Assembly: GCA_965243735.1 (NCBI GenBank)
Contig: CBDEVZ010000008.1
Location: 3,995,180 to 4,059,179 of the forward strand
From: an uncultured Candidatus Binatia bacterium
GTDB lineage: Bacteria; Desulfobacterota; Binatia; Bin18
Length of the DNA: 64,000 nt
Reading direction: 5' to 3'
This document shows positions 15,156 through 53,332 of this stretch, piece after piece. A program made the translations under genes and the position numbers. How positions within the stretch are numbered: the first letter of the stretch is position 1; each line of letters opens with the position of its first letter. Below the pieces are notes generated by a model. It ran no database searches. It worked only from the letters and a program-made list of their open reading frames with translations, and had not been told where the DNA came from.

Positions 15156-15316
15156 TGTGATGCACATTACCCGGACTCGGTTCTTACCAGCCGTGCGGAA
15201 GCCGCTCAGCTGGAGACAACCCACCCCGCCGCTCACGCGCATCCCCTCCTGGGAGGGGAACCGCCCGCATCCCCTCCTGGGAGGGGTGGCCACAGGCCGG
15301 GGTGGGTTTCTTTTCG
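15156..15316. repeat. Intergenic REP/MITE-like element, family 1 (inverted orientation)
   Basis: Bounded by ACGTGTGATGCA and GCATCACACGT. Contains CCCTCCTGGGAGGGG twice. Lies between the two TonB receptor genes. Confidence 0.6.
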
Positions 15317-15344: not shown

Positions 15345-18300
15345 TCAGGAGAGGGCCACGCTCACCCCGACAAACCAGTAGCGGCCCAGGGCGTCGTACA
15401 GGCCGGGGAAGGTGTTGCCGCCTCGGCCGGACTCGCCAACAATGGGCGGTTCCTTGTCAAACAGGTTGCGGATGCCAACCCGCAGGCTGGCATACTCGGT
15501 GACCTGCCAGACCGCAGAAAAGTCGAAATAGTGGCGGTCATCGACCGGAACCGGGCGGTCCGGGTCGGGGTCAGTGCTGGTGCTGATGTAGCGCCACAGC
15601 AGACTCGGCTGTAAGCCCCAGGGACTCAGCCAGGTGGCGCGCAGGATGTTGCGGATCCTCGGGGTTGGCGTGCCGCACGAGTAGCCCCAGCTGCCGGCGC
15701 AGGCGATCTTGGGAATATCCGCAGTTGCCTTCAGATCGTAGGTCTCAAGATACGACAGCAGATTCCTGAAGTTGAGGCTGCCGTAGCGGCCAAGACTGAG
15801 CACATAGTCGATGGCAAAGTCGTAGCCGCGGACCTCGGCGACGGCCAGGTTCTCCAGCACGGCCTCGACATGGCCGGTCGTCTCGACCCGGTCGGAAGGC
15901 AGCCACAGGTCGCCGCTCGGTCCGCGCCTGACCTTGTCACACTGGGAGAGTTTGCCGTCCAGGCAGCGGTTCAGCACAAGCTCCGGTGACAGGGCGCCGA
16001 CGCCGCCCTTGAGTTCGATGTCGAAGTAATCCACGGACAAGCTCAGGCCGTCGAGAAAACCGGGCGTCCAGGTCAGGCCGACCGAATAGGTGTCCGCGTC
16101 TTCGGGAGCCAAGCCCGGGTTACCTCCGATCAGGAAGTTGTACTGACCGGCCGGCGAGTCGGGAATGTGGCCGAACTGCTCGGCCGTCACCCCGCTGCGG
16201 GCGCACTCCTCAAAGCTGCGGCCGGCTGCGGTTTTGCCGTCAACCACCTCGCCGGCGCACGGGTCGGAGGTCATGTAGATCAGGCCCAGCCGCTGGGGCA
16301 GGAACTGTTCGCGGATACTCGGCGCGCGCACCGCCCGCTGGTAGCTGCCGCGCAGGCTGATGTCGTGGTTGATGGCCCAGCCGACCCGGACGCCGTAGGT
16401 ATCGGTCTGGACGCCGTACCACGAGGAGCGATAACCGCCGTTGACGATCAGCTGGCGGATGAACGGCACGTCCTCGATGAGCGGGATACCGGTCTCAATG
16501 AAAAAGGCCGGCACGTCGAAGCCGCCGCTGAGGGGCTGCGGCGCACCGCCCACGCCGGTGCCGTCCCCGCTCTGGGTGATCCGGTCGGGCCGGTATTTGA
16601 GATTCTCCTCGCGCCACTCGCCGCCCAGGGCGATGTCGATGCCATTGGTGGCAAACGGCGATACCAGGCCGTAGCGGCCGAGATTTCCGGCCAGATAGCC
16701 CGACACCACGGTCTGGTCGGTGGTGCCGCGCGTCCGGCGCGTCTGGGTCAGGTAGTCGGTCATCCGGCTGGTGACCGCGCCGTCTTCAAAGATGTTCCAG
16801 GCCACACAGTCGGGGTCGGTGCCGGTCAGCACCGAGCGGCACACGATGTTGCCGGTCGCCGGGTCGCGAACCGCATCCAGAGCCCGGTTCATCCGGCTGG
16901 TCGACAGGCCGTTGACGAACTTGCTCCAGGCGCGGACCGCCGCGTACTGGTAGTACACATTGTAGCGCCAGCTATCGCCGAGTTCGCCCCGCAGTCCGAA
17001 CACGCCACGGTAGGAGGTGTGATGCAGGTAATCCTTGCGGTTGCCGCTCTCGACGCTGCGCCGGCCGATGTAGACGTTCTGGATATCGTCCTCGGTCAAG
17101 CCGTACTGGCCGCACAGAGCCTGAAACTGCTGCTCGGACAGGAAGGCGTTGCCGCAGCGCAGGTGGCGCTGCCTGAAGAACGAGCCCGAGGGCGCGATCT
17201 GGGCGGTGGTGCGGTCGTCCATGAACATCAGTTCGGTGTAGGCTTCGACGTATTTGTGCAGGTCGTAGTGGGCAAACGCGCCGGCGGTCCAGCGCGTATC
17301 CGGGCGCTGAAAGTGGTTGGGGGGCGCGTAGTTGTAGAAGCGGCCGTCCCAGGGTGCGAACTCACCCCCCTCGACCTGGTAGAAGAACGGCCCGCCCGGG
17401 TCGTGGCCGGGCGCGACCTGACGGGCGCCGAAGTCGGCAAACAGGCCCTTGGGAATCGTGGCCGAACCCACGCACCGATCAAGCTCGGGGGTCAGATCGC
17501 AGCTGCTGTGATCGCGGTCGCCCAGAAACACCTTTCCGCCGTCGCGCCAGGTCGCGTAGGCGGTGATGTTGCCCCGGTCGCCCAGGTTTTTGCCCAGGAT
17601 GACCGACACGTTGGACAGCTCGCCGTCGGCGGTCGCGTCGTCGGCAACCTCATAGCCCTGGTCGGAGATCAGCCGCTTGAGGCGGCGGTTGTCGTTGTCG
17701 TGCTGGTGCTGGCTGAACTGGTAATCGACCTTGATGCCCTCGAAATCGTCGATCAGGATGAAGTTGATCACGCCGGCGACCGCGTCCGAGCCATAGGTCA
17801 CCGAGGAGCCGCCGGTCAGCACGTCGACGCGCTTGAGCAGGGCGCCGGGTATCTGGTTGATGTCCTCGTTGCCGGTCCCGCCCCAGGGTGAGCCGGCCGG
17901 CATGCGACGGCCGTTAATCAGCACCAGGGTGCGCGACGAGCCCAGGTGGCGCAGGTTGAGGGTGGCGATGCCGGTGGCGCCGTTGGCGCTGGAGGCGTCC
18001 TGACCGCCGGTAAACACCGAGGGCAGGGAGCGGACCAGCTCTTCGACCCGAACCGTACCCTGGTGCAGGATTTCGTCGGCGTCAATGCTGACGATCGGGC
18101 CGGTCTCGACCTGATCGACCGTCTGCCGCAGGCGCGTGCCGGTCACGACCAAGGCTTCCAGGGCTTCCAACTGCTGCGGCTCTTGTTCGGCCTCGGCGGC
18201 CTGTTGGTCGGCCTCGGCCTGTTGCGCCTCTTGTTCGGTCTGTTGGCCGGCCTCGGCCGGCGGCGGTTCCGTCTCCGCCTGCTGCGCGCCGGCCGGCACG

Positions 18301-19099: not shown

Positions 19100-20239
19100 T
19101 CACCGGAACTCGGCGACCGACAGCACCAGCCGCACCAGGTCCGCCTGCCGGGAGAGGGACAGCTTGTGGTAGATCCGCTTCAGGTGCCAATAGACGGTGC
19201 CCTCCGTGCGCCCCGTCGTCACGGCCATGTCGCGCACGGTCCGACCCTCGGCCAGCCAAACCGCGATGTGGCTCTCTGACGGGGTGAGGTCCAGGGTGCG
19301 GGCCACAAGGTCAGGATCCAGGCGGGGCTGATAGTTCGGTTCAACCAGCAGCACGAGCGCGGCGACCCACCGTGCCCCAAAGTCCAGTTGGAGCCCGCCC
19401 ACGGGGGTGACGTGGACCACGAAGGCCGGCAACAGGGACGCGCGGCGCAGCAGCATCGAGCCGCTGGCGGGGGTGCCGGCAGTCGGCAGGGCGCGCGCCA
19501 CCAGCCGCGCCAACTGGTCCTGCTCGGTCGGCACGGTGGCCCGCAACAGCCCCTCCGGGTCTGACACTCCATCGCCGCGCCGCAGGAGGTCCCGGGCGCG
19601 GTCATTGGCCTCGATGACCCGCCCCTGACGGTCCAACTGGATGACGCCCACCCGGGTGTTGTTGAGCAGGGCGGTCGCGGAGGCGTCGAAGGCGTCGGCG
19701 CGGACCAGCGCCTGGCGGACACGAACAAACTGGCGCAGATGGGGCAGCAGTCCTCTGATCAGCGCCACCTGCGGAGACCGCCAACCGTCCGGGGCGAGAG
19801 GCTCATAGAGGCCCCAGACCGTGCTGGAGCCGTCTGGCTCGATCAGGCGCACGTTCAGGCAATTCTGGCTGTTGTAGCGGGGCAGGATCTCGTTGTACAT
19901 CGGCGAGGTCTTCAGCTCCTCCTCGGTGTACAGGGCCGTGTTATGCACGAGCTGGCTGTCCGCCAGATGCCGGTAGCGCGGGACGCGTTCGTCCAGGGAA
20001 AAGTAGTGTTCGAAGTACTCGCGCTCCCAGTCGGTGAGGCGCTGCCCCCGGTGGTACACTCCCACGAAGCTACAGCCCCCCAGGGCCTCGTCCTGCAGGC
20101 CTCCGCCGACCGCCAGGACATGGCCCCACAGGCCGCAGGCCTCATCAATCAGGGCCGAGGCCACCGGCCACCGGCCGTCGTAGAGCATGGCGTCGTACAG
20201 CGCGGTAACGATCCGGTCAAAAGCATCTTGGTCACTCAT
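19100..20239 (-). CDS. LuxR-family transcriptional regulator with ~300-aa N-terminal domain of unknown function (paralog 1)
   Basis: C-terminal LuxR HTH (LTPSESHIAVWLAEGRTVRDMAVTTGRTEGTVYWHLKRIYHKL). Start MSDQDAFDRIV is preceded by GGAGG-N7. Roughly 75% identical to the paralog at 53333-54478. Confidence 0.8.
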   Translation of the reverse strand: MSDQDAFDRIVTALYDAMLYDGRWPVASALIDEACGLWGHVLAVGGGLQDEALGGCSFVGVYHRGQRLTDWEREYFEHYFSLDERVPRYRHLADSQLVHNTALYTEEELKTSPMYNEILPRYNSQNCLNVRLIEPDGSSTVWGLYEPLAPDGWRSPQVALIRGLLPHLRQFVRVRQALVRADAFDASATALLNNTRVGVIQLDRQGRVIEANDRARDLLRRGDGVSDPEGLLRATVPTEQDQLARLVARALPTAGTPASGSMLLRRASLLPAFVVHVTPVGGLQLDFGARWVAALVLLVEPNYQPRLDPDLVARTLDLTPSESHIAVWLAEGRTVRDMAVTTGRTEGTVYWHLKRIYHKLSLSRQADLVRLVLSVAEFR

Positions 20240-20385
20240 CACACAACCTCCTCTCTCTCCATCTCTCTCCATTGGCCTTGCCACGCTGCCCACGCGGCCG
20301 CGCCCGCCGGACCACAGGGTCCGTCACTCGGAACGGCGCGGGGAGCAGACATGAACAACATTAGCGCCCCCCTATACCTCATCTC

Positions 20386-20605: not shown

Positions 20606-20852
20606 GCTACCTAAGTGCAGTTGCAATCAATTATCAATTGAATCACTGAGGCTAAAAATTTTTGCACCCAGCGCCCCGCAGGACACGCGTCGTGTCGGGC
20701 TGGGACTCGAACGAACTCGAAGTGACCTGGAGCAATTCATAGAGGAGGGAGGAAGGAGTGAGGAATGAAGACTTAATCAACGGCACCTAGAGGAACGAAG
20801 ACAAGTGGAAATGACCAAAAACCATTCCAAGAACGCAAAAGGAGAGCACGGA

Positions 20853-22487
20853 ATGCATCGACCGACCCGACTCCGACCCCTGACCCTGACCTTGGCACTG
20901 GGAGCGCTGGTAGCCCTGTTCGGCGCTGGCGCAGCACACGCAACCGACCCCGAAGCCTGTTCCGCTGAGCCCGCGGATGAGGTCCCCTCGAACCGCGTCG
21001 CCCTCTTCGATGTCTACTGGAACAATAGTGACGATAGAAATGACCCGAATTCCAAAACCCTGGTCAACAATCCCTGCCCGCCGACAGTCAGCCATACAGC
21101 AGGTGGTACTGACCCGATTACCGGGCTACCGACACCACCAACCACCACCCGCACCGCCTCCGACATCCACATCGACCACACCATCATCCATATTCCCGAG
21201 TCGGCCAAGCGGACGGTAACCAATAGTAACAGCGAAGATTACGGCGGAGGCTTCTACAATTTCTTGCGCCGTGGGCCGGATGAAGAAAACGGAGATGCCT
21301 CATACGCACCTTCAGCCGAGGTGTATATTGTCCCCGCCTGCGAGAAGACGGCCACGAACCCGTCCCTCTGCCTGGGTGCTTCCGCCGGCCTGCTGACCCC
21401 CGGAGACTGGGCCCCGGACCCCGCGAACCGGAATGAGGGGACCAAGATCCAGTATGAGTTCGAGGCCATTCGGGAACCGGGACACGCCACGCAAGGCTGG
21501 GGCAATGTCTTTGTCTTCAAGATAGAAGAGGACCCAGAAATCCAAGCCCAGAGACCGAGGATAATCTGGCGCACCGACGATGCCGACGACAACGAGTGGA
21601 AGGTCGCCCCCGGTGCCTACGACTATGCCTACTGGGCCTTTACCGAACCGGGTACCTACGTGTTTCACGTCCACGCCAAAGGCCACCCCAATAAGCAGCG
21701 TACCGGCGGTCCCCTCACCACTGCCGACACCGTGACCAGCGAGGTACGGCGGTACACCTTCCAAGTGGGCAATTTGCCCGTGAACCATGAACCGCTCTTT
21801 AATGTTACGCGGAAGGTGACGGAAAACGCCCCCGCCGGGACCAACGTGGGAGAACCCATATTGGTGAAAGACCTGGACGCCGACACCCTGTGTTTCGCCC
21901 TGGACGGACTCGGCGCCCATGAGAACTTTACCATTAACGGCGCTGCGAACGCCGAGAAATGCGGCACGCTGACTGCCGTGAACAGATCCGGGAACGGCCA
22001 GATGAGGGCCCAGATTCAGGTCAAGGCGGGCGCGGATCTGGACTATGAGAGCATCGACTTTTACGACATCAAGTTGTTGGTGAGCGATGGCCAGGACCAT
22101 GAGGGCAATGTCGACCTGTCCACCATCGACGACAGCGTCATAGTGTCCATCAGCCTGAGAGATGACACGTCAGATAATCCGGAAGGACCCAGCAGGAATC
22201 CCTTCTCGGTGACGGCTGAGTACCCATCACCATCAGCAGGAGAGGCAGGGTTTGACTTGGTCGCGACGTGGAATGGCCCCGCAGCAGGTGCGACATTCAG
22301 GTGGTACCGCCTTCCCCATGGCGACGAGGGGTTTCAGGCTGGTACGGACAAAAGGATCACCGTGCGACCCGGCCATACGGGAGCGTGGGAATACTGGGCA
22401 CGGGTGACCTATCGGAATGGCGGTGTCACAAGGACGCGGGAATCCAATCGAGTGAGAGTCGTCTGGCCCTGGCCGTCATCTGAGTAA
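20853..22487 (+). CDS. Secreted cadherin-domain protein
   Basis: Signal peptide MHRPTRLRPLTLTLALGALVALFGAGAAHA. GGAGAG RBS. Cadherin-like repeat (NHEPLFNVTRKVTENAPAGTNVGEPILVKDLDADTL...DYESIDFYDIKLLVSDG). Confidence 0.8.
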   Translation: MHRPTRLRPLTLTLALGALVALFGAGAAHATDPEACSAEPADEVPSNRVALFDVYWNNSDDRNDPNSKTLVNNPCPPTVSHTAGGTDPITGLPTPPTTTRTASDIHIDHTIIHIPESAKRTVTNSNSEDYGGGFYNFLRRGPDEENGDASYAPSAEVYIVPACEKTATNPSLCLGASAGLLTPGDWAPDPANRNEGTKIQYEFEAIREPGHATQGWGNVFVFKIEEDPEIQAQRPRIIWRTDDADDNEWKVAPGAYDYAYWAFTEPGTYVFHVHAKGHPNKQRTGGPLTTADTVTSEVRRYTFQVGNLPVNHEPLFNVTRKVTENAPAGTNVGEPILVKDLDADTLCFALDGLGAHENFTINGAANAEKCGTLTAVNRSGNGQMRAQIQVKAGADLDYESIDFYDIKLLVSDGQDHEGNVDLSTIDDSVIVSISLRDDTSDNPEGPSRNPFSVTAEYPSPSAGEAGFDLVATWNGPAAGATFRWYRLPHGDEGFQAGTDKRITVRPGHTGAWEYWARVTYRNGGVTRTRESNRVRVVWPWPSSE

Positions 22488-22663
22488 TGACGGGTGGCTC
22501 TCCGGTTCCACGCCTTCTGCGACTTCCCGCTTGAGGCGTGGACCTGCCCGGCCCTCCGTTCGTCCTGAGCGTAGCGTAGTAAAGTCGAAGGGCGAACGGA
22601 GGGTCAGAGGTGCAGCAGGGCTACACCTCCCACACACGTAGAGCAAATACCAATGCTGTTCTC

Positions 22664-22747
22664 GTCATTCCTGCTTCCGCAGGAATCCAGCCCCCGACTT
22701 CCAGACCCCGGATCAAAGCCGGACCCCGGACATGATCCGGGGTCCGG
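22664..22747. repeat. Intergenic repeat family 2 (hairpins GTCATTCCTGC..GCAGGAATCCAG and CCCCGGACATGATCCGGGGTCCG)
   Basis: A second copy lies at 52626-52716. Both have the same two palindromic hairpins in the same order. Confidence 0.5.
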
Positions 22748-22757
22748 CAAGACGAGA

Positions 22758-25700
22758 GTGGTTATATTGCGTCGCTTGTTCATCTCTCTGCTGACCCTTG
22801 TCGGTGTTGCCCTGAGCGGGGCGGTTGTCGGCCCTGGCACGGCTCATGCGCAAGGGAGTGACATTGACTTGGCTGTCAGCATAGTCCTTCAGGACAACGT
22901 ACAAAATCCAACCATTACCGTTGCGAATTATGGGTCTGACAACGCGTACCATGTACGGGTTGTGATGAAGGTTGACGGCATTACGCTCGGTACTACGCTC
23001 GGCCGCCCATCGCCAGGCACCGTTGCGCTCCACCCAACTGATTCCACCACTACACTGATTTGGAGCATTCCCCGGATGCCGGGGAATAGAACCTCATACA
23101 AGTATCTATTACGCACGACAGCTTCGACTTCGATAACAGTGGTTCAATATACAGCTACAGTCCATAGTGGCGTTTTCCTTGAGCCCGAGGCATTGCGGCA
23201 CAACAACCACGCCGAAGTCTGGCAGCTGAGAATCTCTGGGACTCGGACCGAGACGCCGGACCCTACATACGCTATCGAGGCGACAGTTGACAATCGTTTT
23301 CCGCAGGCCCAAGGGAGCGTGACCTTTACGCTGGTTGCCAGAAACTTGGCAACGGGAGGCACTGTGGGTCATCTTTCAGATGCTCGGGTAGACGTTCTTC
23401 TGCCTGCGGGGGGCTTGACCTATACATCGCATACCGCTCCAACAGGCACCAGCTATGATTCCAACACCGGGATATGGACCATTGGCGATTGGCGACAGAC
23501 TACCGCCACCCACTCGCTAACGCTGACGGCGACGCTGGCCGCCGACGCCGTGCTGAATGAGCAATGTGTGACCGCGGAAATATCGGCCAAGCCACCGGAA
23601 CCAATTGACGAGACGGTGAACAACCGGAGTACGGTTTGTTTGGGGGTGCTCAACGAGCCCGTGCTGTTCCAGAGCGAGCAGGTTAACCTGTTCACCCCCT
23701 ACCCATGCGTTGGTAATACTACCTCCCCATGCAATAGCCAAGACACAGTGGAAATGCTCGCACTCAAAGCAGAAGGAGAGCAATATATTCTGCCTCAGGC
23801 CACTACCGTTCAAGTATTGGACCCCGAGGGGCGCATCGTTGACGGCGCGAATATCGCGTGGAGGATTCCCTCTAGTGACACTCTCACTTTGAAACCCTCT
23901 ATAGATAATAGCTTGCTCTCTTCTTCTGATTGGACCAAGTGGCTGTGGAAAATAGCAGCAGTGCAACTGCCGACTGGGGGGCACCTCTCCATCGGCCCAG
24001 CAACAAGTACCGCCTTCGCCTATGTACACACTGGGACCAAGGCCCAGCATCCGCCTGGCGGCCTCACAGCCCTGCCCGCGGCCCTGAAGACAGCAGTACC
24101 GGTATGGATCAAATTCGAGGCCCTGGGAACTTACATCGTAAACTTCACTCAGGCAACCGCCCACGCCACCGCTAGTGGCGACTGCGACACCGACGGTGAC
24201 AACACCAACGACGCCCTCTGCGCCACCGAGGCCTACACCTTCCATGTCGGCCCGGTGGCTGAGTTGGCCGTGCGCGACGACGGTCCCAGCCCGGACGCCA
24301 CCTCCAGCCAGCGTGCCTTCACCATCATGGCCCTCAATACCGGCCCGGACTCCGCCCCCGCGGCCAAGGTGACCGTGGACCTGCAAGGCGCCAGTGTCAG
24401 TCCGCCCATTGCCAGCCAGGGCACCTACCGCAGCGGCGAGTGGTTCCTAGGCGAGTTGCAGACCACAGACTACTACCAGACCCTTGGCCAAACCGCCGGC
24501 CCGACCCTGACCTTCATCACCACCGACCCCGTGGATGCCCCCATCACCGCCACCATCACCAACACCCAGGACTACCAGGTGTGCATCGACAGCAGCGGCA
24601 ACGACCTCAGCCACACCACCCAAGCCACCTGCGAAGCCGACACCACCAACGGCGGCAGTTGGCACACCGCCAAGTACTACGACTACATTTCCACCAACAA
24701 CACCGCCACCGTGACCGCGCAGACGGGAACAGCCCCCCCACAGGCGGACATCACCGTCGAGTGGACCGCGCCGGCGGATGTCACCGTGTCCCGCTACCAG
24801 GTCTGGCGCCAGGGCAGCCCCTGGAAGCTGATCGCGGAGGTGCCGACGGGCCAGACCAGTTACACAGACTCCACTGCCGAACCCGGCCGGGCGTATCTTT
24901 ACATGGTCCGGGCCATGGACGCCCAGGGCATCCCTGTGTCGTCAGAGACACTGGTGGCCGCACCACCCCAGACCGGCGGCCAGGGCGGCCAAGACGGTTC
25001 GGGCGGTTCGACCCGTCCTCCCCCGACCGACCACCACGGCAACAGTCCGGCCACCGCCACTCCCCTCGCCCCCACCGCCCGCGTCGGTGGCCTGCTGCAC
25101 TACGGCGACCAGGATTACTTTCGCCTCGTCCTGCCCCACACCGGCCTGCTGTACGTCGAGACCACCGGCTGGAGCAACACCGTCGGCACCGTCTGGCAAG
25201 GCGGCGTCGAACTGGGCAGCGCCGAACTGGGCGGGCGACTGTACAACTTCAAGCTCGGCGTGCCCGTCCAGCCCGGCCCGGTCGTCATCCGGGTGACTGA
25301 GCGGTCGCCGACCGCCTTCGGGACCTACCGCTTGTACACGCGCTTCATCGCCGGGGCGGTCGAGCAACCGCGCCCCATCACCGTGCAGAACGGCCTGGGT
25401 ATGGTAGCCGGCTGGCTGTGTAGTGAAGACCCCGTCGTCCTGGAAATCGACGGCCTGCCCTATCACCCGGCCCCGCAGCCCGCCCCGGTTCCTCCCCCAC
25501 TCCCCCACGTGGTCGGAACCGGCGGCTCCGGGCTGCCGCCCCGGGCGGTTGATCCCCACGAGCTGTGCGACGACACGGCCACCGGCTTTGGCCTGCCCGT
25601 CAACTGGAACCTGCTGGGCGACGGCCAGCACACCCTCATCGCCTACCTGGACGGCATCGAATTCGCCCGCACCCTCGTAGACGTGACGACCCTGGGCGAG

Positions 25701-26291
25701 GAGTTCGTCCACGACGCCCACGGCACCTGTAGCGTGGCCGACTTTCCGCTGCCCGACCACAGCGTCAGCCTGGTGTGGCAGGAAGCCGGCCAGCACTTCG
25801 CCCTGAGCGACGGCCAGCCCCCGCCGTCCGTCGGCGCCACCAGCGCCAGCGATGTGCTCGGCCGGCTGGAAACCCCCGCGCCCAGCTCCTTTCAGAGCGG
25901 CCGGGGCAGCATCAGCGGCTGGGTGTGCGACGCCGAGGCCGTCAGTGTCGAGATCAACGGCACGCCGTATCCGGTCGCCTACGGCACGGCGCGGTTGGAC
26001 GTGGCGGCGGTGTGTGAGACCCCGGCGCCCGGCTTTGGGCTGAGCCTCGACTGGAATCGGCTCGGGCCGGGCGACCACGAGGTCGTGGCCCTGGCCGACG
26101 GGGCGGAGTTCGGGCGGGCCACAGTGCGGGTGACGACCCTGGGCGCGGCGTTCGCGCGCGACGCCGAATCGGCGTTTATACGGGGGCTGGCCGGGGAATG
26201 CGTGGTGGAGGACTTTCCAGCGCCCGGCGAGGCCGTCCATCTGGAGTGGCAGGAGACCACCCAGAACTTCGTCATTACCGGCGTCGAGTAA
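22758..26291 (+). CDS. Giant secreted modular protein: DUF11 repeats - FN3 - PPC-like domain - tandem ~115-aa Cys-containing C-terminal domains
   Basis: Signal peptide (RRLFISLLTLVGVALSGAVVGPGTAHA). Start is uncertain, either GTG 22758 or TTG 22767. DUF11-like (G.W.IGDW...TLT). FN3. PPC motif HYGDQDYFRLVL. Two C-terminal repeats (SGWLC/SGWVC...GFGL..NWN/DWN.LG.G.H..VAL.DG.EF.R..V.VTTLG..F...G.C.V.DFP..G..V.L.WQE..QNF). Confidence 0.8.
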   Translation: MVILRRLFISLLTLVGVALSGAVVGPGTAHAQGSDIDLAVSIVLQDNVQNPTITVANYGSDNAYHVRVVMKVDGITLGTTLGRPSPGTVALHPTDSTTTLIWSIPRMPGNRTSYKYLLRTTASTSITVVQYTATVHSGVFLEPEALRHNNHAEVWQLRISGTRTETPDPTYAIEATVDNRFPQAQGSVTFTLVARNLATGGTVGHLSDARVDVLLPAGGLTYTSHTAPTGTSYDSNTGIWTIGDWRQTTATHSLTLTATLAADAVLNEQCVTAEISAKPPEPIDETVNNRSTVCLGVLNEPVLFQSEQVNLFTPYPCVGNTTSPCNSQDTVEMLALKAEGEQYILPQATTVQVLDPEGRIVDGANIAWRIPSSDTLTLKPSIDNSLLSSSDWTKWLWKIAAVQLPTGGHLSIGPATSTAFAYVHTGTKAQHPPGGLTALPAALKTAVPVWIKFEALGTYIVNFTQATAHATASGDCDTDGDNTNDALCATEAYTFHVGPVAELAVRDDGPSPDATSSQRAFTIMALNTGPDSAPAAKVTVDLQGASVSPPIASQGTYRSGEWFLGELQTTDYYQTLGQTAGPTLTFITTDPVDAPITATITNTQDYQVCIDSSGNDLSHTTQATCEADTTNGGSWHTAKYYDYISTNNTATVTAQTGTAPPQADITVEWTAPADVTVSRYQVWRQGSPWKLIAEVPTGQTSYTDSTAEPGRAYLYMVRAMDAQGIPVSSETLVAAPPQTGGQGGQDGSGGSTRPPPTDHHGNSPATATPLAPTARVGGLLHYGDQDYFRLVLPHTGLLYVETTGWSNTVGTVWQGGVELGSAELGGRLYNFKLGVPVQPGPVVIRVTERSPTAFGTYRLYTRFIAGAVEQPRPITVQNGLGMVAGWLCSEDPVVLEIDGLPYHPAPQPAPVPPPLPHVVGTGGSGLPPRAVDPHELCDDTATGFGLPVNWNLLGDGQHTLIAYLDGIEFARTLVDVTTLGEEFVHDAHGTCSVADFPLPDHSVSLVWQEAGQHFALSDGQPPPSVGATSASDVLGRLETPAPSSFQSGRGSISGWVCDAEAVSVEINGTPYPVAYGTARLDVAAVCETPAPGFGLSLDWNRLGPGDHEVVALADGAEFGRATVRVTTLGAAFARDAESAFIRGLAGECVVEDFPAPGEAVHLEWQETTQNFVITGVE

Positions 26292-26600
26292 GACGCCAAC
26301 GTATCCCCTCCACGGAGGGGGGGCCGACCCGGGGACCCCATCCTCCCCCCCGGCCCGCTGCCCTTTCCCCTCCGGGCAGCGGGAGCCCGGCCCATTCTCC
26401 CCCGGGCGGGGCGGGTGCCACAGCAGCCCGCTCCGAGAGGGGCTGCTGTGGCGGGAAAATCCCCCTCACTCCCCCTTTGTCAACTGCACATGGCGTCATA
26501 CAACGCCGCGAGGCTGCGCTCAAAGGCGTCTCGGTCACTCACCACATAGCCTCTTCGCTCCACCGCCCCGCCAAACGGCCCGTGTCCGCAGGATCGACTG

Positions 26601-26647
26601 CCCCCTAAAATTGGAGGCTTGACGGTTCCATCGGTCTTTCACAAATT
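26601..26647 (+). promoter_or_regulatory. Conserved promoter CCCCCTAAAATTGGAGGCTTGACGG-N17-CAAATT upstream of the NHL-repeat gene
   Basis: Same AAAATTGGAGGCTTGACGGTTC...TCTTTCACA architecture as 20561-20605. Followed by a ~160-nt conserved leader. Confidence 0.45.
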
Positions 26648-26804
26648 AAATGAGATAAAGTTGCAATTACATATTAATGTCAATTAAGTCCTTACCTGTC
26701 CAGTGGAGGCCCTGACTGCGTACTGAGGCCCGCGGTCCCCGAACCGAGCGCTCGGTAAGACCAACGTCATACTGGGTGAAGGTGGAGGACCGGAGGAGCA
26801 AGAG

Positions 26805-29800
26805 GTGTGCAGTAGCGTCCGACCCATTCCCCCGCATCCGAGGCGTCATCCGTTCCGCTTCCCTATTGCGCTGAGTCTGATCCTGGCCGCACTGCTGGGC
26901 GGTACGGCAGGAGCGCAGCAACCTTCTTCATTGATACGCTGGCGGGCCCAAGCTGGCCCTATCCTGACTATCCCAATAGCGTGGCGGTCGCCAGCGACGG
27001 CACCATCTACCTGGCCGACCGCGACAGCCATACCGTCTTACGGGTAGAAACGGACGGGAGCCTCAGTGTCCTGGCGGGAACGGGATTCGCCGGCTACAGC
27101 GGCGACGGCGGAGCAGCAGCGGCAGCCCAACTCAACACGCCCACCGGCGTGGCGGTGACCGCCGATGACGCCACCGTGTACATTGCCGACCGAGCCAACA
27201 ACCGCATCCGCAAGGTCGATGTGGCCACCCGGATCATCACCACGTTCGCCGGGACGGGAAGCGCCGGCTTCAACGGCGACGGCGGGGCAGCAACGGCAGC
27301 CGTCTTGAACCTGCCCATTGGCGTGGCGGTGGACGGCGACGGCAACGTGTACATTGCCGACCTGAACAACCACCGCATCCGGAAAGTGACGGTAGCTACC
27401 GGAGTTATCGACACGATTGCGGGCTCGGGGGCTTACGGCTCCGGGCAGGGCGGCTACGGAGGGGATAACGGGCCGGCAACGGCGGCGCGGCTCAACAACC
27501 CCGTCGGTGTGGCGGTGGACGGCGACGGCAATGTGTACATCGGGGACTGGAGCAACAACCGCGTGCGCAAGGTAGATGTCAGTATGGACCCTCCGACCAT
27601 CACCACGATTGCGGGAAACGGGACCTCCGGTTTCAGCGGTGACGATGGCCAGGCGACTGCGGCTCAGCTTGCGAACCCCTATGGTGTAGCGGTGGCCAGC
27701 GATGGGACGGTGTACATCACCGATTCGACCAACCAGCGTGTGCGCAAGGTGGCCACCGACGGGGTCATTACCACGGTTGCGGGCTCGGGAGCGAGCAGCG
27801 GCGACATCTACGAGGACGGCATCCAGGCAACCGCAGCGCGGCTTGTGAATCCCCGCGACGTGGCGCTGGACAGCAGTGGCAATTTCTATATTGCTATGCA
27901 GGGTCAAAACGACCAAGGCGCCATCCGCAAGGTTGATACCAGCGGGATCATCACCACGGTCGCGGGGGGCTGGACCCGCGGCTTCAGCGGTGACGGCGGG
28001 CCGGCGAAGGCAGCCCGGCTTAATGGAGCCACTGACGTGGCGGTCGACAGCAGCGGCAACGTGTACATTGCCGATTACACCAACAACCGCATCCGCAAGG
28101 TCGATACCAGCGGGATTATCACCACATTTGCGTCTACGGGGATCACGAGCCCCCGTGGCCTGGCGGTCGACAGCAGCGACAACGTGTACGTTGCTCAGAA
28201 CCACCGTATCCTGAAGATTGATGGCAGCACGGCTCCCCCGACCATCACCACAGTCGCCGGAACGGGGAGCAGCGGCTTCAGCGGCGACGGCGGAGCGGCA
28301 ACCTCGGCCCAGCTCGACTCTCCCTATGGCGTGGCAATCGACAGCGCCGGCAACATCTACATCGCCGATGGGGGGAATCATCGTGTGCGGAAGGTCGACG
28401 TCAGTGCGGACCCGCCGACCATCGCTACGTTCGCGGGCTCGGGGAGCCATAGTTCCGGAGGGTTCAGCGGCGACGGCGGAGCGGCAACCTCGGCCCGGCT
28501 CGACTCTCCCTATGGCGTGGCAATCGACAGTGACGGCAACGTGTACATTGCCTGTTATTTCAATCACCGGGTCCGCAAGGTCGACGTCAGTGCGGACCCG
28601 CCGACCATCGCTACATTCGCGGGCTCGGGGAGCCATAATTCCGGTGGCTTCGGCGGCGACGGCGGGGCGGCGACCGCAGCCCGGCTTAACAGCCCCTACG
28701 GCGTAGCGGTGGCCAGCGATGGGACGGTGTACATCGCCGATGCGAACAACCGCCGCATCCGGGCCGTGGCGACCGACGGGACGATTAACACAGTGGCGGG
28801 AACGGGGACGGGGATCACCTTACCAGGCGTACCCGACGGCAGCCTGGCGACCGCTGCCACTGTCTATTTTCCCAGAAAAGTCGCAGTCTCCAGCACCGGC
28901 GCTGTGTACATCGCCTGGAGTAACCTGGTGAGCGTGTTGACGACAAACGGACCGCCACAGGCGCGTGACGCCAGCCCAATGACGCCAACAGGGACGCAGG
29001 CTATCATCGCTCTACCGGTATCCGACCCGAACGGTGATCCGATGACCGTAACGGTGAGCACGCCGCCAACAAACGGCACGACGACGGTCTCCGGCACTAC
29101 CATCTACTATACGCCGAACGCGGGCTTTACCGGCGTTGACACCTTCGCGTACACGGTCTCCGACGGCCAGGGCGGCAGCGCCACGGCAACGATCAGAGTC
29201 AGGGTGGGAGCCGAAGCCGGGGCCCCGCCCCCGCCCCCCGCGGACGGCGCAGGCGGCGCAGGCGGGGCGGGCCGGCGCCAGCCAACCGACCACCACGGCA
29301 ATAGCCCGGCCACCGCCACTCCGCTGGCTCCCACCGCCCGCGCCGGCGGCCTGCTGCACTACGGCGACCAGGATTACTTTCGCCTCGTCCTGCCCCACGC
29401 CGGCCTGCTGTACGTCGAGACCACCGGCTGGAGCAACACCGTCGGCACCGTCTGGCAAGGCGGCGTCGAACTCGGCAGCGCCGAACTGGGCGGACGGCTG
29501 TACAACTTCAAGCTCGGCGTGCCCGTCCAGCCCGGCCCGGTCGTCATCCGAGTGACCGAGCGGTCGCGAACCGCCTTCGGGACCTACCGCTTGTACACGC
29601 GCTATCTCCCTGGGTCGATTGACCACCCGCGCCCCCTCACCGTCCAGAACGGCCTGGGCATGGTAGCCGGCTGGCTGTGCAGCGCCGACCCCGTCGTGCT
29701 GGAGATCGACGGCCAGCCCTACTACCCGGCCCCGCTGCCCGCGCCGGTCTCCCCGCCGTCCGACCTCGTGATCAGCCTCGGCGGCTCCGGGCTGCCGCCC

Positions 29801-30550
29801 CGGGCGGTTGATCCCGATGAGCTGTGCGACGACACCGCTACCGGCTTTGGCCTGCCCGTCAACTGGAACCTGCTGGGTGACGGCCAGCACACCCTCATCG
29901 CCTACCTGGACGGCATTGAATTCGCCCGCACCGTCGTAGACGTGACGACCCTGGGCGAAGAGTTCGTCCACGACGCCCACGGCACCTGTAGCGTGCCCGA
30001 CTTTCCGCTGCCCGACCACAGCGTCAGCCTGGTCTGGCAGGAAGCCGGCCAGCACTTCGCCCTGAGCGACGGCCAGCCCCCGCCGTCCGTCAGCGCCACC
30101 AGCGCCAGTGAGGTGCTTGGCCGGCTGGAGACCCCCGCGCCCGGCTCCTTCCAGAGCGGCCGGGGCGTCATCAGCGGCTGGGTGTGCGACGCCGAGGCCG
30201 TCAGTATCGAGATTGACGGTACACCGTATCCGGTCGCCTACGGCACGGCGCGGTTGGACGTGGCGGCGGTGTGTGAGACCCCGGCGCCCGGCTTTGGGCT
30301 GAGCCTCGACTGGAATCGGCTCGGGCCGGGCAACCACGAGGTCGTGGCCCTGGCCGACGGGGCGGAGTTCGGGCGGGCCATGGTGCGGGTGACGACCCTG
30401 GGCGCGGCGTTCGCGCGCGATGCCGGATCGGCCTTCGTGCGGGGGCTGGCCGGGGAATGCGTCGTCGAGGACTTTCCAGCGCCCGGCGAGGCCGTCCATC
30501 TGGAGTGGCAGGAGGCCACGCAGAACTTCGTTATCACCGGCGTCGAGTAG
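26805..30550 (+). CDS. Giant secreted NHL-repeat beta-propeller protein with cadherin-like Ig domain, PPC-like domain and tandem C-terminal domains. The signal-peptide exon is out of frame with the body
   Basis: GTG 26805 with GGAGGAG RBS encodes signal peptide MCSSVRPIPPHPRRHPFRFPIALSLILAALLG in frame 0. The body from about 26930 is in frame 2 (..YPNSVAVASDGTIYLADRD). It has more than 11 NHL units (YIAD..NNRIRKVD). The C-terminus is ~95% identical at DNA level to the preceding gene. Confidence 0.7.
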
Positions 30551-30827
30551 GGGTGCCGCGGGCGTCTTCCCTCCCGGGCCGGCTACTGCAAAAAGGCACC
30601 CACCCCGGCCCTCCAGGCCACCCCTCCGAGGAGGGGAACTGCCCTCATCCCCGCCTTGGAGGGGCGATACAAATGAGATACAGTTGCAATTACATATTAA
30701 TGTCAACTAAGTCCTCGCCTGTCCGGTGGAGGTCCTGATTGCGTACTGAGGCCCGCGGTCCCCGAACCGAGCGCTCGGTAAGACCAACGTCATACTGGGT
30801 GGAGGTAGAGGACCGGAGGAGCAAGAG

Positions 30828-33800
30828 GTGTGCAGTAGCGTCCGACCCATTCCCCCGCATCCGAGGCGTCATCCGTTCCGCTTCCCTATTGCGCTGAGTC
30901 TGGTCCTGGCCGCACTGCTGGGCGTGGGCGCACCTCCGGTCCAGGCCGCGCCCAGCTTCACCGTTGACAGCATTGACCCGGTGGTCTTCACCACGTCGCC
31001 TGGGACCGGGTCGGGTTGTACGCAGCCCACCAACTCCGTCACCCTGCCCGACGCCACCGGCACGGGGACCATATCCTACACCATCACCCCCACCCTGCCC
31101 GCCGGCATCACGCTCTCTGGCAGGGATCTCACCGCCGCACCAGCGACGGTGCAGGCCCAGGCCGCTACGGCCTACACCTACACTGCCACCGACGACGCCG
31201 ACGCCCAGACGGCCTCCCTCACCTTGACCATTGAGGTCGTGGACGAGAGAGCCGTGTTGCAGACCCTCTACAATGCGACTGACGGCCCCAACTGGAAGAC
31301 CACAACCGGCGGCTGGGCCAATCCCATCACGGCCACCTGCCTGGCGGACTTGCAAGGCGTCACGCTCACGAGTGGGCGGGTAGCCAGAATCTCTCTCATA
31401 GAAAACAAGCTGACCGGCTCGATTCCCCCTGAACTGGGCAAGCTAACCGGCCTGACCCGTCTCTTCCTCAACAGCGTCGAACCGGCCGACCCGAATGACA
31501 ACCAACTGACCGGAGAGATTCCCCCTGAGCTGGGCAAGCTGACCAGATTGACCCAACTCCAACTCCACAACAACCAACTGACCGGAGAGATTCCCCCTGA
31601 GCTGGGCACCCTGACCGAGCTGACCTGGCTCTGGCTCTACAACAACCAACTGACCGGAGAGATTCCCGACCTGAGCAAGCTGGCCAAGCTGAGACTGCTC
31701 CACCTCCACAACAACCAACTGAGTGGGGCGATCCCCGCCGGGACGGATAATGCTAACAATCCGACCGGGTTGGCCAAACTCACCAACCTGGAGGTGCTTA
31801 GCCTCTCCGACAACCAACTGACCGGAGAGATTCCCCCTGAACTGGGCACCCTGGCCAACCTGCTAAATCTCTATCTCGACAATAACCAACTGAGTGGGGC
31901 GCTTCCCACAGAGTTGGGCAGCCTCGCCAACCTGAGCGGCCTCTTTCTCAACAACAATCGACTGGAGGGCGCGCTTCCCACGGAGTTGGGCAACCTGACC
32001 TACCTGACCTATCTCTGGCTCCACAACAACCAACTGAGCGGGACCATCCCGACCCAATTGGACAGCCTCACCAGCCTGATCTGGCTCTATCTCCACAACA
32101 ACCAACTGAGCGGGACCATCCCGACCCAATTGGGCAGCCTCACCAGCCTGCAACGGCTCTATCTCCACGACAACCAACTAACCGGGGCGCTTCCGACCCA
32201 ATTGGGCAGCCTCGCCAGCCTGCAAGGGCTCTATCTCTACAACAACCGACTGAGCGGGGCGCTTCCCACGGAGTTGGGCAGCCTCGCCAACCTGCAACAG
32301 CTCTATCTCTACAACAACCCCCTGAGCGGCCCGGTGCCGTCAGGATGGGGCGGCAGCACGTATCCTCTCACGAGCCTGACTGATCTTGACCTCAGCTACA
32401 CCAACCTGACCGGCACGCTGCCAACCGCCTTGGCCACCCGGCGGGATGCCGATCCCCCCACCCTCACCGTGACGTGGGACACCATCGTTGACCGGACCTC
32501 CCTGCCCACCGAAGTGGCGAGTGTCCGCATTGAGTGGGCTTCCCCCCCCGATCCGACCGTCACGGATCCCACCGCCTTCAGCGTGGGGCCGCCGGCCGGC
32601 ACCACCTTCCCCGAGCCCCGGCAAATCTATACCCTGACGGCCCTCGATAGTGGCGGGGACGCCGTAACGGACCGCCTGAGCGCCTCCATAGAGGTGTGTC
32701 TGCCCCGACCGGCGGGCCTGACGGCCCCACTCTATGTGTACCGCTACCAGCCGGCGGCGGACACGACCCAGCCGGGACGCTGGGAGCGTTTGACCGCGGG
32801 GTGGCGCGTCAGCGATAGGGAGGTGTGCGCCACAGTCTCGCAGTTCTCCGACTTCCAGGTCGGCACGTACACGCCTCCGCCGCCTCCGCCACCGTCACGA
32901 CAAGGCGGCGGGGGTGGTCGTCCCCGCGACGACCATGGCAACTCCGCCAGCCGGGCTACTCGGATTCCGCTGACCGCCCGCATGGTCGGACAGATCGGCA
33001 CCCGCAGCGATGTCGATTATTTCACGCTCACCGTGCCCCACGCCGGAATCCTGGTCGTCGAGACCACCGGCTCGACCGATACCCGCGGTACGGTGTGGCA
33101 GGACGGCGCACGGCTGGCCACCGCCGATAGCGGGGGGACGGGGCAGAACTTCCGGCTCAGCGTGCAGGCCGAAGCCGGACCGGTGGTGATTGCCGTACGG
33201 GGCAACGGGCGACAGACCGGCCGCTACGTCTTACAGACGACCCTGGTCGTCGGCTTTCTGGAGAACCCTAGCCCGGACTCCTTCCAGAGCGGTATCGGCA
33301 CCCTGTCGGGCTGGGTATGTGAGGCCGACGAGGTCGTGCTGGAAATCAACGGCACACCCTTTTCTGCCGCCTACGGCACGGCCCGCAGCGACACCCAAGA
33401 CACGTGCGGAGACACGGACAACGGCTTCGGCCTGCTGTTCAACTGGAACGAGCTGGGCGACGGCCGGCACGAGGTCGTGGCCCTGGTCGATGGGGTCGAG
33501 CTGAGCCGCACCAGCGTGACCGTCACCACCCTGGGCACGCCGTTTCTGCGGGAGGCAAGCGGGACGTGTGAAGCCACCGACTTTCCGAGCACGGGTGAGC
33601 ATGTGACCCTGGTATGGCAGGAAGCCAAGCAGAACTTCGTCATCACCGACGGCGGTAGCCCGCCCACGGGCAGCTCTGCCGTTGAAAGCGAAGTCACCGG
33701 CTTTCTGGAGAACCCCGCCCCCAACTCCTTCCAGAGCGGGGTCGGGCTGCTGTCGGGCTGGGTGTGTGAGGCGGATGGCGTCACCCTGGAGATCGACGGT

Positions 33801-34106
33801 CAGACGGTGACAGCTGCCTACGGCACTGACCGAGCCGACACGGCCGACGCGTGTGGCGATACGGACAACGGCTTTGGGCTGCTGTTCAACTGGAACGAGT
33901 TGGGCGACGGGGACTACGAGGTCATCGCCCGGGCTGACGGGGTAGCGTTTGACCGGGCCACAGTACGGGTGGTGACGCTGGGCGAGCCGTTTCTGCGCGA
34001 GGCGCGCGGGACGTGTGAGGTGGTGGACTTTCCAGAGGTCGGCGACACGGTGACGCTGACCTGGCAGACAGCCCAGCAGAACTTCGTCATCACCGCTGTC
34101 CGGTAG
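30828..34106 (+). CDS. Giant secreted plant-type LRR protein: putative Ig domain - LRRNT-like cap - ~20 LRRs - PPC-like domain - tandem C-terminal domains
   Basis: Intact 1092-aa ORF with the same signal peptide as the NHL gene. LRRs such as LTGEIPPELGKLTRLTQLQLHNNQLTGEIP are plant LRR-RLK-like. PPC motif SDVDYFTLTVPHAG. Two SGWVCEAD... repeats ending QNFVITAVR. Confidence 0.85.
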   Translation: MCSSVRPIPPHPRRHPFRFPIALSLVLAALLGVGAPPVQAAPSFTVDSIDPVVFTTSPGTGSGCTQPTNSVTLPDATGTGTISYTITPTLPAGITLSGRDLTAAPATVQAQAATAYTYTATDDADAQTASLTLTIEVVDERAVLQTLYNATDGPNWKTTTGGWANPITATCLADLQGVTLTSGRVARISLIENKLTGSIPPELGKLTGLTRLFLNSVEPADPNDNQLTGEIPPELGKLTRLTQLQLHNNQLTGEIPPELGTLTELTWLWLYNNQLTGEIPDLSKLAKLRLLHLHNNQLSGAIPAGTDNANNPTGLAKLTNLEVLSLSDNQLTGEIPPELGTLANLLNLYLDNNQLSGALPTELGSLANLSGLFLNNNRLEGALPTELGNLTYLTYLWLHNNQLSGTIPTQLDSLTSLIWLYLHNNQLSGTIPTQLGSLTSLQRLYLHDNQLTGALPTQLGSLASLQGLYLYNNRLSGALPTELGSLANLQQLYLYNNPLSGPVPSGWGGSTYPLTSLTDLDLSYTNLTGTLPTALATRRDADPPTLTVTWDTIVDRTSLPTEVASVRIEWASPPDPTVTDPTAFSVGPPAGTTFPEPRQIYTLTALDSGGDAVTDRLSASIEVCLPRPAGLTAPLYVYRYQPAADTTQPGRWERLTAGWRVSDREVCATVSQFSDFQVGTYTPPPPPPPSRQGGGGGRPRDDHGNSASRATRIPLTARMVGQIGTRSDVDYFTLTVPHAGILVVETTGSTDTRGTVWQDGARLATADSGGTGQNFRLSVQAEAGPVVIAVRGNGRQTGRYVLQTTLVVGFLENPSPDSFQSGIGTLSGWVCEADEVVLEINGTPFSAAYGTARSDTQDTCGDTDNGFGLLFNWNELGDGRHEVVALVDGVELSRTSVTVTTLGTPFLREASGTCEATDFPSTGEHVTLVWQEAKQNFVITDGGSPPTGSSAVESEVTGFLENPAPNSFQSGVGLLSGWVCEADGVTLEIDGQTVTAAYGTDRADTADACGDTDNGFGLLFNWNELGDGDYEVIARADGVAFDRATVRVVTLGEPFLREARGTCEVVDFPEVGDTVTLTWQTAQQNFVITAVR

Positions 34107-34285: not shown

Positions 34286-34439
34286 TCTGATGCATATTGC
34301 GTTATCCAGCGCCTAGAAAGCACCCACCCCGGCCCTCTGGGCCACCCCTCCGAGGAGGGGAACCGCGCGAGCGGCGGGGTGGGTGATCTCCGGCTCAGCG
34401 GCACCCGGGCGCAAGTTCCTGGGAACGTGCATTACACGT
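34286..34439. repeat. Intergenic REP/MITE-like element, family 1 (degenerate terminal repeats)
   Basis: CACCCACCCCGGCC...CACCCCTCCGAGGAGGGGAAC...GCGGCGGGGTGGGT...GTGCATTACACGT. Closely matches the 1112-1281 copy. Confidence 0.5.
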
Positions 34440-35092: not shown

Positions 35093-35184
35093 GTGTAGTA
35101 GGTCGGATTAGCGGAGCGTAATCCGACACGCACGGGATGTCAGGTTACGCCTCCGGCTAACCTGACCTACACGGCTGCACCTAA
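35093..35184. repeat. Intergenic repeat family 3 (nested palindromes CGGATTAGCGGAGCGTAATCCG and CAGGTTACGCCTCCGGCTAACCTG)
   Basis: A reverse-complement copy lies at 48201-48299. A partial copy lies at 61955-61995. Confidence 0.5.
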
Positions 35185-35227
35185 TAGTCAATTGCTCTAG
35201 GCAAGCGCTGAAAAAAGGAGGACGAGC

Positions 35228-53197: not shown

Positions 53198-53332
53198 AAT
53201 GGATGGAGTATGGACATGTGCTAGCATTATTGATGTCTGCCTCTCACGCCGTCCCGAGGAGCGGCCTCCGTGGTCCGGCGGGCGCGGCCGCGCGGGCAGC
53301 GTGTCAATGCGATGGAAGGAGGAAGATGTGTG

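Follow-up and report, generated by a model that had tools for sequence, protein, structure and literature searches.

A shared C-terminal cassette and signs of recombination in an exoprotein gene array of a Candidatus Binatia bacterium

Surface-protein paralogues that have conserved ends are well known to evolve in concert and to form chimeras. In Helicobacter pylori, babA, babB and babC are adhesin paralogues with near-identical 5' and 3' ends and divergent middles, and RecA-dependent gene conversion, together with the formation of chimeras, moves these middles between loci and between strains. As far as we know, the bab genes would be the closest analogue of the locus described here, a tandem array of exoprotein genes within a 64,000-nucleotide (nt) stretch of the genome of an uncultured Candidatus Binatia bacterium (GTDB lineage Bacteria; Desulfobacterota; Binatia; Bin18; assembly GCA_965243735.1, contig CBDEVZ010000008.1, positions 3,995,180 to 4,059,179). 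In this stretch, which is referred to as the window and in whose numbering positions are given, the adjacent genes A (22653-26291) and B (26805-30550), both on the forward strand, terminate in the same 1.27-kb 3' cassette. An earlier, sequence-only reading of the window had attributed the near-identity of the two gene ends to gene conversion or cassette exchange. Sponge symbionts possess large sets of eukaryotic-like proteins whose build-up and turnover are poorly understood, and this locus offers a concrete mechanism for these processes.

Two near-identical gene ends and their mosaic divergence

A blastn comparison of the window with itself matched 25023-26290 to 29282-30549 with 92.76% identity over 1270 columns (E = 0), which excludes chance similarity. 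In frame, 25026-26291 and 29285-30550 align without gaps over 1266 nt with 94 mismatches (92.6% identity), and 385 of the 421 residues of the two cassette proteins are identical. Cassette copy A (25023-26291, forward strand) consists of a pre-peptidase C-terminal (PPC)-like domain (25026-25346) and two Ig-like repeats (25347-25850 and 25851-26288); copy B (29282-30550, forward strand) is likewise of the A type. The similarity sets in at 25023 and 29282, in a Gly/Pro-rich linker just 5' of the first cassette domain, and stops at the stop codons, which are TAA in A and TAG in B. Upstream of these points the two genes are unrelated: the part of the protein preceding the cassette, here called the passenger, contains DUF11/CLIPPER and fn3 domains in A (Pfam DUF11, E = 1e-15; fn3, E = 1.3e-4), behind a hydrophobic, signal-like N-terminal segment read from the translation, and eight NHL repeats of a beta-propeller plus a Big_9 domain in B (Pfam).

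Thirty-nine of the 94 mismatches fall within a 200-nt hot spot of divergence in repeat 1 (25341-25540), which holds a proline-rich loop and in which A is 87-90% identical to its orthologues and 80% identical to B; the other 1066 nt are 94.8% identical. Thus, the near base-for-base alignment of the two cassettes and the unrelatedness of the coding parts upstream, both noted in the sequence-only reading, were confirmed, while its figure of about 95% identity holds outside the hot spot and gives way to 92.6-92.8% overall. The longest perfect run between the copies covers 108 nt (25965-26072 in A, 30224-30331 in B; p = 0.016 under uniform mismatch placement).

More diverged forms of the cassette terminate two further genes: gene C (30828-34106, forward strand), with a leucine-rich repeat (LRR) passenger (Pfam LRR families) and a C-type cassette at 32904-34106 that is 48-51% identical to A at the amino acid level, and gene D (55755-60884, reverse strand), with an S8 subtilase, fn3, P-domain and cadherin passenger (Pfam) and a cassette at 55755-57008 that is 43% identical to A and 58% to C. 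The earlier reading had correctly recognized the same, more diverged cassette in the LRR and subtilase genes, but its estimate of 50-60% protein identity was slightly high, as identities to A are 43-51%; C and D are 58-60% identical to each other.

To place these values in an evolutionary context, three syntenic loci from related strains were used: L001 and L004, which come from the same ENA sample and have flanks 94.6-96.3% identical to those of the window, and L093, whose flanks are 98.1-98.7% identical. Equal divergence at synonymous sites, which would have pointed to selection on the protein, was not found: the A and B cassettes have a synonymous divergence (dS) of 0.168, a nonsynonymous divergence (dN) of 0.047 and a dN/dS of 0.27, and dS is 0.70 between A and C and 0.90 between C and D. 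The A cassette of the window is not nearer to its orthologues than to its neighbour B, with dS of 0.229 to the A cassette of L001 (L001_A) and 0.168 to B. In repeat 2, dS is 0.139 between A and B, 0.285 between A and L001_A, and 0.248 between B and L001_A. For the flanking genes, dS between the window and L001 is 0.08-0.17.

The affinities of the A cassette change along its length. Site patterns were scored only where L001_A and L004_A agree, as O (A equals the orthologues but not B), P (A equals B but not the orthologues) or X (B equals the orthologues but not A), and 58 O, 54 P and 37 X sites were counted. These are sharply clustered: O sites outnumber P sites by 15 to 1 in 25490-25589, and P sites outnumber O sites by 11 to 1 in 25990-26089 (permutation p<1e-4). 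Clustering recurs when L093_A is used for comparison (permutation p = 0.006), and the two copies are thus a mosaic. With L093_A, nine P sites lie in 25926-26025, and in 25923-26022 A is 95-100% identical to B and 88-90% identical to L093_A. Within the 108-nt identical run lies a derived block (25995-26009) in which the A and B cassettes of the window (wA and wB) agree at nine positions in 15 nt where L093_A, L001_A and L004_A have other bases; for the most part these positions are different in L006, L002_B, L005_B and L003_A too, and the window haplotype occurs in none of the seven other A-type cassettes. A derived block confined to wA and wB and missing from the A cassette of L093, whose flanks are only about 1.3% diverged, is the pattern that gene conversion predicts. 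Judged from the sequences, the region of about 25.93-26.07 kb is the best candidate for a recent conversion tract.

Comparisons with other species point in the same direction. The NHL-linked cassette L002_B has dS of 0.42 and 0.40 to wA and wB, respectively, the NHL-linked P0272 is 88% and 87% identical to them in amino acids, and the DUF11-linked L003_A has dS of 0.48 and 0.53; wA and wB are thus about equally distant from each of these, and the cassettes group by genome and not by passenger. Altogether, paralogue-closer tracts, clustered mosaic sites and genome-specific shared derived variants, the marks by which gene conversion is recognized, were all found, and gene conversion and cassette exchange are supported. 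All the checks suggested with the earlier reading that were run favoured it. The recent homogenizing recombination suggested earlier finds support in the mosaic and the derived block; most of the similarity, though, is about as old as the split of the strains, and only short tracts are recent.

Array structure and alternative layouts in related strains

The array runs from the A passenger and its cassette through an intergenic region (IG_A), a 5' module, the NHL passenger and its cassette, a second intergenic region (IG_B) and a second 5' module to the LRR passenger and the C-type cassette. The 5' modules form a second repeat pair, overlooked in the earlier reading, 26645-26901 and 30668-30924 (both forward strand), with 13 mismatches in 257 nt; blastn reports 254 nt at 96.1% identity, the second copy then being 30671-30924. 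Copy 1 comprises about 160 nt from upstream of the NHL gene, among them an AT-rich patch, and the first 32 codons of that gene, which encode the n- and h-regions of the signal peptide, and copy 2 comprises the DNA upstream of the LRR gene and its first 32 codons. The LRR gene starts with GTG at 30828, and the equivalent GTG ahead of the NHL gene is at 26805. The module resembles the cassette in its behaviour, being 95-96% identical between B and C and 87% identical between B and the NHL gene of L004. Plain tandem duplication with a 4.26-kb period was ruled out, because one repeat pair is offset by 4259 nt and the other by 4023 nt, the passengers of the NHL and LRR genes are unrelated to each other, and IG_A is unlike IG_B.

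The site is flanked by a LuxR/TonB-receptor side and a SnoaL/SGL side, between which the layout varies among strains (A-B-C in the window). L001 has no NHL gene, and there IG_A, a 5' module and the LRR gene come straight after A. In L004, A is followed by an NHL gene and then by the SnoaL flank, with no LRR gene; in its PPC domain this NHL gene is orthologous to the NHL gene of L019 (85-91%), and over the final ~400 nt it is 97-100% identical to the cassette of the L001 LRR gene. L093, which also has no LRR gene, carries A, an insertion sequence (IS) and an NHL gene with a C-type cassette; this gene is 96-100% identical to that of the window over the first ~1 kb and 69-92% identical over the rest. 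On a short contig from a Binatota metagenome-assembled genome (MAG), L006, an A-type cassette is joined to DNA that follows gene C in the window. Simple deletion from a window-like A-B-C array was ruled out as the whole story for L004 and L093, because the NHL genes of these two strains have retained a distinct PPC, which L019 also has, and the 3' half of their passenger is divergent.

Other passenger and cassette combinations, for which the earlier reading had recommended a search in other strains, therefore exist at the same locus, and the tail of the NHL orthologues takes one of three forms: an A-type cassette (in the window, L002, L005 and P0272), their own PPC with C-like repeats (L004, L019, L093, P0263, P0266, P0270 and P0273), or an fn3 domain in place of the PPC ahead of the two repeats (P0264 and P0265). 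The last arrangement indicates that the parts of the cassette are themselves exchangeable. A DUF11 orthologue in L080 has the repeats without PPC. The passengers are far more diverged between strains than the flanks, with 53% protein identity to L004 for passenger A and dS of 0.38 to L004 for the NHL passenger; the region is thus a variable island exchanged by recombination.

We consider it probable that homologous recombination on the 3' cassette (A and B) and on the 5' module (B and C) homogenizes tails, adds and removes genes, and re-pairs passengers with tails. The cassette terminates hundreds of secreted proteins with eukaryotic-like domains in sponge-associated Candidatus Binatia, and the tandem array contains two stretches of near-identical DNA that would serve as handles, the 1.27-kb 3' cassette common to A and B and the 257-nt 5' module common to B and C. 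Non-reciprocal gene conversion would copy patches between the cassettes of one genome, leading to concerted evolution; unequal crossover, deletion or allelic replacement between strains, with ends in or at the modules, would add or remove whole genes. Crossover or replacement at the modules would also re-pair passengers with tails, and could yield the layouts A-C, A-NHL with a C-type tail, and A-IS-NHL with a C-type tail. RecA-type recombination is the presumed agent, and the direction and order of the events are likewise presumed. Between-strain recombination contributes alongside within-genome conversion, and the shared 5' module is used as well. Owing to the conserved gene ends, recombination can make the common tail uniform and exchange working domains among genes as well as among strains (flanks 95-99% identical).

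Several other histories were weighed against recombination at the two handles. It is hardly credible that purifying selection alone preserved the similarity of the copies after an old duplication: selective constraint acts on the cassette (dN/dS of 0.2-0.4 across comparisons), but the A-B dS is 4-5 times below that of the other cassette pairs of the same genome, which refutes this explanation. A single segmental duplication, either of the cassette or of a whole gene whose passenger was then replaced, followed by independent divergence under purifying selection and no continuing conversion, seems unlikely. It would accommodate a dS of 0.17, which is not tiny, the dN/dS of 0.27, and repeat boundaries that coincide with a domain start and a stop codon, but under it one would not expect clustered instead of uniform site patterns, repeat 2 paralogues about twice as close as orthologues, or a derived block missing from the A cassette of a strain with 98.7% identical flanks. 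Somewhat more room must be left, although we regard it as doubtful, for the possibility that B arrived with an A-type cassette already in place, as an NHL allele from another Binatia lineage brought in by between-strain recombination, with conversion adding only small patches. NHL genes with A-type cassettes do exist in other species (L002, L005 and P0272), the NHL gene of the window departs from that of L093 after the first ~1 kb, and the dS of the B passenger to L004 is far above that of the flanks; however, wB is not nearer to NHL-linked cassettes than wA is, and the derived block confined to wA and wB requires transfer within the genome. This history overlaps with the preferred recombination model and does not exclude it.

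An assembly artefact, in which the repeated cassettes of a metagenome with mixed strains were collapsed or joined into a chimera, is very improbable. Several strains do coexist in the samples, as L001 and L004 illustrate, and the B-to-C junction is seen in the window only; yet the two copies are told apart by 94 mismatches and by their flanks and stop codons, an identical B protein of 1189 aa has been recorded on an NCBI contig of 5.22 Mb, L004 and L093 independently show A next to an NHL gene, and in L001, too, the 5' module is joined to the LRR gene. Some observations nevertheless weigh against recombination at the two handles as we propose it. The A-B dS of 0.17 about equals the between-strain flank dS of 0.08-0.17, so most of the similarity could date from one event near the strain split. 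The hot spot, a loop modelled with low confidence, may simply evolve fast. The B-to-C junction was found in no other assembly in our searches, including a Joint Genome Institute (JGI) metagenome scan with protein B, which yielded no new close relative, and exact look-ups of P0003, P0272 and P0231, which matched no contig. The related loci are metagenome assemblies from mixed-strain communities, several with frameshifts, so some of the layouts could be assembly chimeras. Finally, the function that we infer for the cassette comes from its modelled fold and its position only.

Gene B itself carries a 1-nt deletion right after the signal peptide, with AA at 26920-26921 where relatives have AAA: positions 26913-26925 read CAGCAACC in the window, and L093 (via P0277), L004, L002, L019 and L005 have CAGCAAACC. 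The deletion puts the signal peptide (GTG at 26805) out of frame with the NHL body, an open reading frame (ORF) at 26981-30550, and if a single A is inserted, an uninterrupted ORF of 1248 aa results. In the NCBI annotation of the source genome, gene B likewise begins at 26981. Gene B is either a recent pseudogene or affected by a consensus error.

The intergenic regions differ in kind. IG_A (26292-26644, 353 nt) contains a strong hairpin at about 26417-26452 (fold z-score -3.4) and is kept downstream of A in L001, L004 and L093, where matches to the window extend past the A stop codon to 26483 (L001 and L093) or 26377 (L004); it differs from the region after B. IG_B (30551-30667, 117 nt) contains a GC-rich hairpin of the repetitive extragenic palindromic (REP) type (z-score -3.2), and self-blastn located this element also at 1119-1194 and 34317-34366. 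Scans of both intergenic regions detected no sigma-70 promoter and no intrinsic terminator; in view of the negative sigma-70 scan, we do not call the 5' module a promoter, and a role of this kind is putative. Conservation of the 5' leader across species had raised the suspicion of an RNA element, and a search of 26250-27050 against Rfam gave nothing credible.

Short GC-rich intergenic repeat families occur at 30587-30664, 1119-1194, 34317-34402 and 15201-15258, and also at 35093-35205 against 48297-48185. Their predicted hairpins are strong, with z-scores of -2.1 to -4.6, and they resemble REP elements or miniature inverted-repeat transposable elements. They are situated 3' of cassette genes and of other genes; one is located where L006 passes from the A-type cassette to the DNA downstream of gene C. 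Transposase genes (DDE_Tnp_1; IS630-like DDE_3 with a helix-turn-helix (HTH) domain) were found inserted between cassette genes, just upstream of the NHL gene, at 7793-9623 of L093 and 1345-2422 of L002, so the array is also a target of IS insertion. For annotation and binning of genomes, the cassette and module repeats account for the breaks of short-read assemblies at the cassette genes; a cassette forms one end of L006 and of L081.

Predicted fold, distribution and surroundings of the cassette

Neither Pfam nor NCBIfam has a model for the cassette. Cassette A has no Pfam match, and cassette C reaches PPC (PF04151) with E = 0.74 and 11.2 bits, below the cut-off of 25.9. In NCBIfam, no family was found for cassette A at E<=1, and cassette C has only a weak match to Ig_like_ice (E = 0.065); a profile search against PDB sequences with the cassette returned only ColG (E = 0.34). 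An AlphaFold model built from 122 sequences has a predicted local distance difference test score (pLDDT) of 87 and a predicted template modelling score (pTM) of 0.82. In Foldseek, domain 1 of this model matches 1nqd, 1nqj, 2o8o, 3jqw and 5sv5 with target TM-scores of 0.72-0.83 and root-mean-square deviations of 1.9-2.3 A, and this domain superposes on the collagen-binding domains of ColG and ColH and on the pre-peptidase C-terminal domain of a Bacillus anthracis collagenase. Domain 1 thus falls short of PF04151 by sequence score and has the PPC/collagen-binding fold in its predicted structure. The two repeats of ~145 residues are predicted to be beta-sandwiches with a conserved cysteine pair and have only generic Ig-like structural neighbours, and pLDDT falls below 50 at cassette residues 159-173, the proline-rich loop of the hot spot. 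According to the model, the cassette thus begins with a domain of the collagenase-type PPC fold and continues with two Ig-like repeats.

Of 122 homologues, 105 have the cassette at their extreme C-terminus, and its terminal motif is QNFVITxVE. A profile search among 1.84 billion representative proteins (clustered at 50% identity) returned 1571 clusters at E<=1e-30, with proteins of 355-3320 aa in which the match nearly always reaches the last residue, and at least 491 cassette copies were confirmed in species-representative genomes. The clusters derive almost entirely from sponge-associated Candidatus Binatia. Among the 80 cassette loci listed, nearly all belong to Candidatus Binatia MAGs, 24 of the 80 are on one chromosome, and two actinobacterial sponge symbionts have one locus each. 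Among the passenger domains are cadherin, LRR, fn3, Calx-beta, NHL and Big, and N-terminal signal peptides are present on A, C and D. In Ca. Poriferisodalis, L059 (9707-10906, on a 2.65-Mb contig) carries the two repeats without PPC beside hydantoinase A/B genes. A Binatia A-like gene, at 7296-11017 of L003, is also located between hydantoinase genes, and this shared setting may reflect transfer between phyla within the sponge.

The cassette may act as a common address or attachment module, with the collagen matrix of the sponge or the cell surface as its target, and the tail would stay uniform since all passengers need the same partner. With the qualification that the fold is modelled, we favour such an attachment or address role over an outer-membrane export signal: domain 1 has a PPC fold, the cassette keeps to the C-terminus, A, C and D begin with signal peptides, and the repeats occur in an actinobacterial symbiont as well as in diderm Binatia. 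The collagen-binding fold of domain 1 leads to the testable idea that effectors are attached in a collagen-rich host. More tentatively, the cassette might be an undescribed address tag of sponge symbionts that brings NHL, LRR, cadherin, fn3 and DUF11 domains and proteases to one partner, either the collagen/spongin matrix or an envelope receptor, and that forms with the 5' module a built-in recombination handle, in effect a diversity-generating architecture at the population level; we think this possible rather than likely. If it were true, the locus would not record a one-off conversion, and the symbiont population would continually re-pair, gain and lose host-interaction domains.

The rest of the window is ordinary chromosome, with genes for PEPCK, transporters and TonB-dependent receptors. 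Two paralogous regulators with a LuxR-type GerE HTH domain (19100-20293, reverse strand; 53270-54478, forward strand) share 83% DNA identity, and each adjoins a cassette-gene cluster; a PAS domain was detected only in the copy at 19100-20293. A similar gene lies near a cassette gene in L052, and the two regulators may be dedicated to the cassette exoproteins. Directly upstream of the exoprotein array are tandem TonB-dependent receptor paralogues with ~70% DNA identity (12205-15032 and 15347-18184, reverse strand). Between the LuxR gene and A, an ORF of 560 aa (20805-22487, forward strand) has only weak matches (choice-of-anchor M, TIGR03769); its DNA is 65-75% identical to the counterparts in L001 and L093, and it thus belongs to the same hypervariable island.

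Comparison with known systems

No description of the cassette, or of gene conversion in eukaryotic-like proteins of sponge symbionts, was found in the literature; the cassette module is undescribed, and the recombination mechanism is of a known kind. Like the H. pylori bab genes, the array combines near-identical gene ends with differing middles. However, the bab genes are dispersed loci for beta-barrel outer-membrane proteins, whereas the genes studied here form a tandem array encoding secreted multi-domain proteins, in which the constant part would be a soluble PPC domain with two Ig-like domains and the passengers have unrelated folds instead of being alleles of one adhesin.

The combination of diverse passengers on one C-terminal module, an N-terminal Sec signal and strong expansion within a genome is also known from the cargo proteins of the type IX secretion system (T9SS) and from the autotransporters of type V secretion (T5SS). 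Unlike T9SS cargo, cassette A has no match to T9SS C-terminal-domain models (NCBIfam, E<=1); unlike in T5SS, the cassette is modelled as three beta-sandwich domains with no beta-barrel, and it has no autotransporter match in Pfam. The presence of the repeats in an actinobacterial sponge symbiont also argues against an outer-membrane export signal, provided that this copy is functional. The PPC or collagen-binding domains (CBD) of collagenases (ColG s3a/s3b, ColH s3; PF04151) resemble domain 1 in predicted fold and in forming the C-terminal part of secreted enzymes or adhesins; they differ in that the cassette sequence lies below the Pfam thresholds and that its two following repeats have no specific structural relative.

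With the polymorphic toxins (contact-dependent inhibition (CDI), Rhs and MafB systems), the array shares a constant part and alternative cassettes that are reshuffled, in combinations that vary by strain. The polarity is reversed, however, as the tail is constant here and the N-terminal body is variable. Furthermore, no toxin domain and no adjacent immunity gene were found, hairpin-containing intergenic regions and then the next exoprotein gene following downstream, and the silent cassette arrays typical of polymorphic toxin systems were not found here. The array is thus better described as the combination of an undescribed tail, expanded in sponge-associated Binatia, with a matching 5' handle, and the comparison across strains shows that both are in use.

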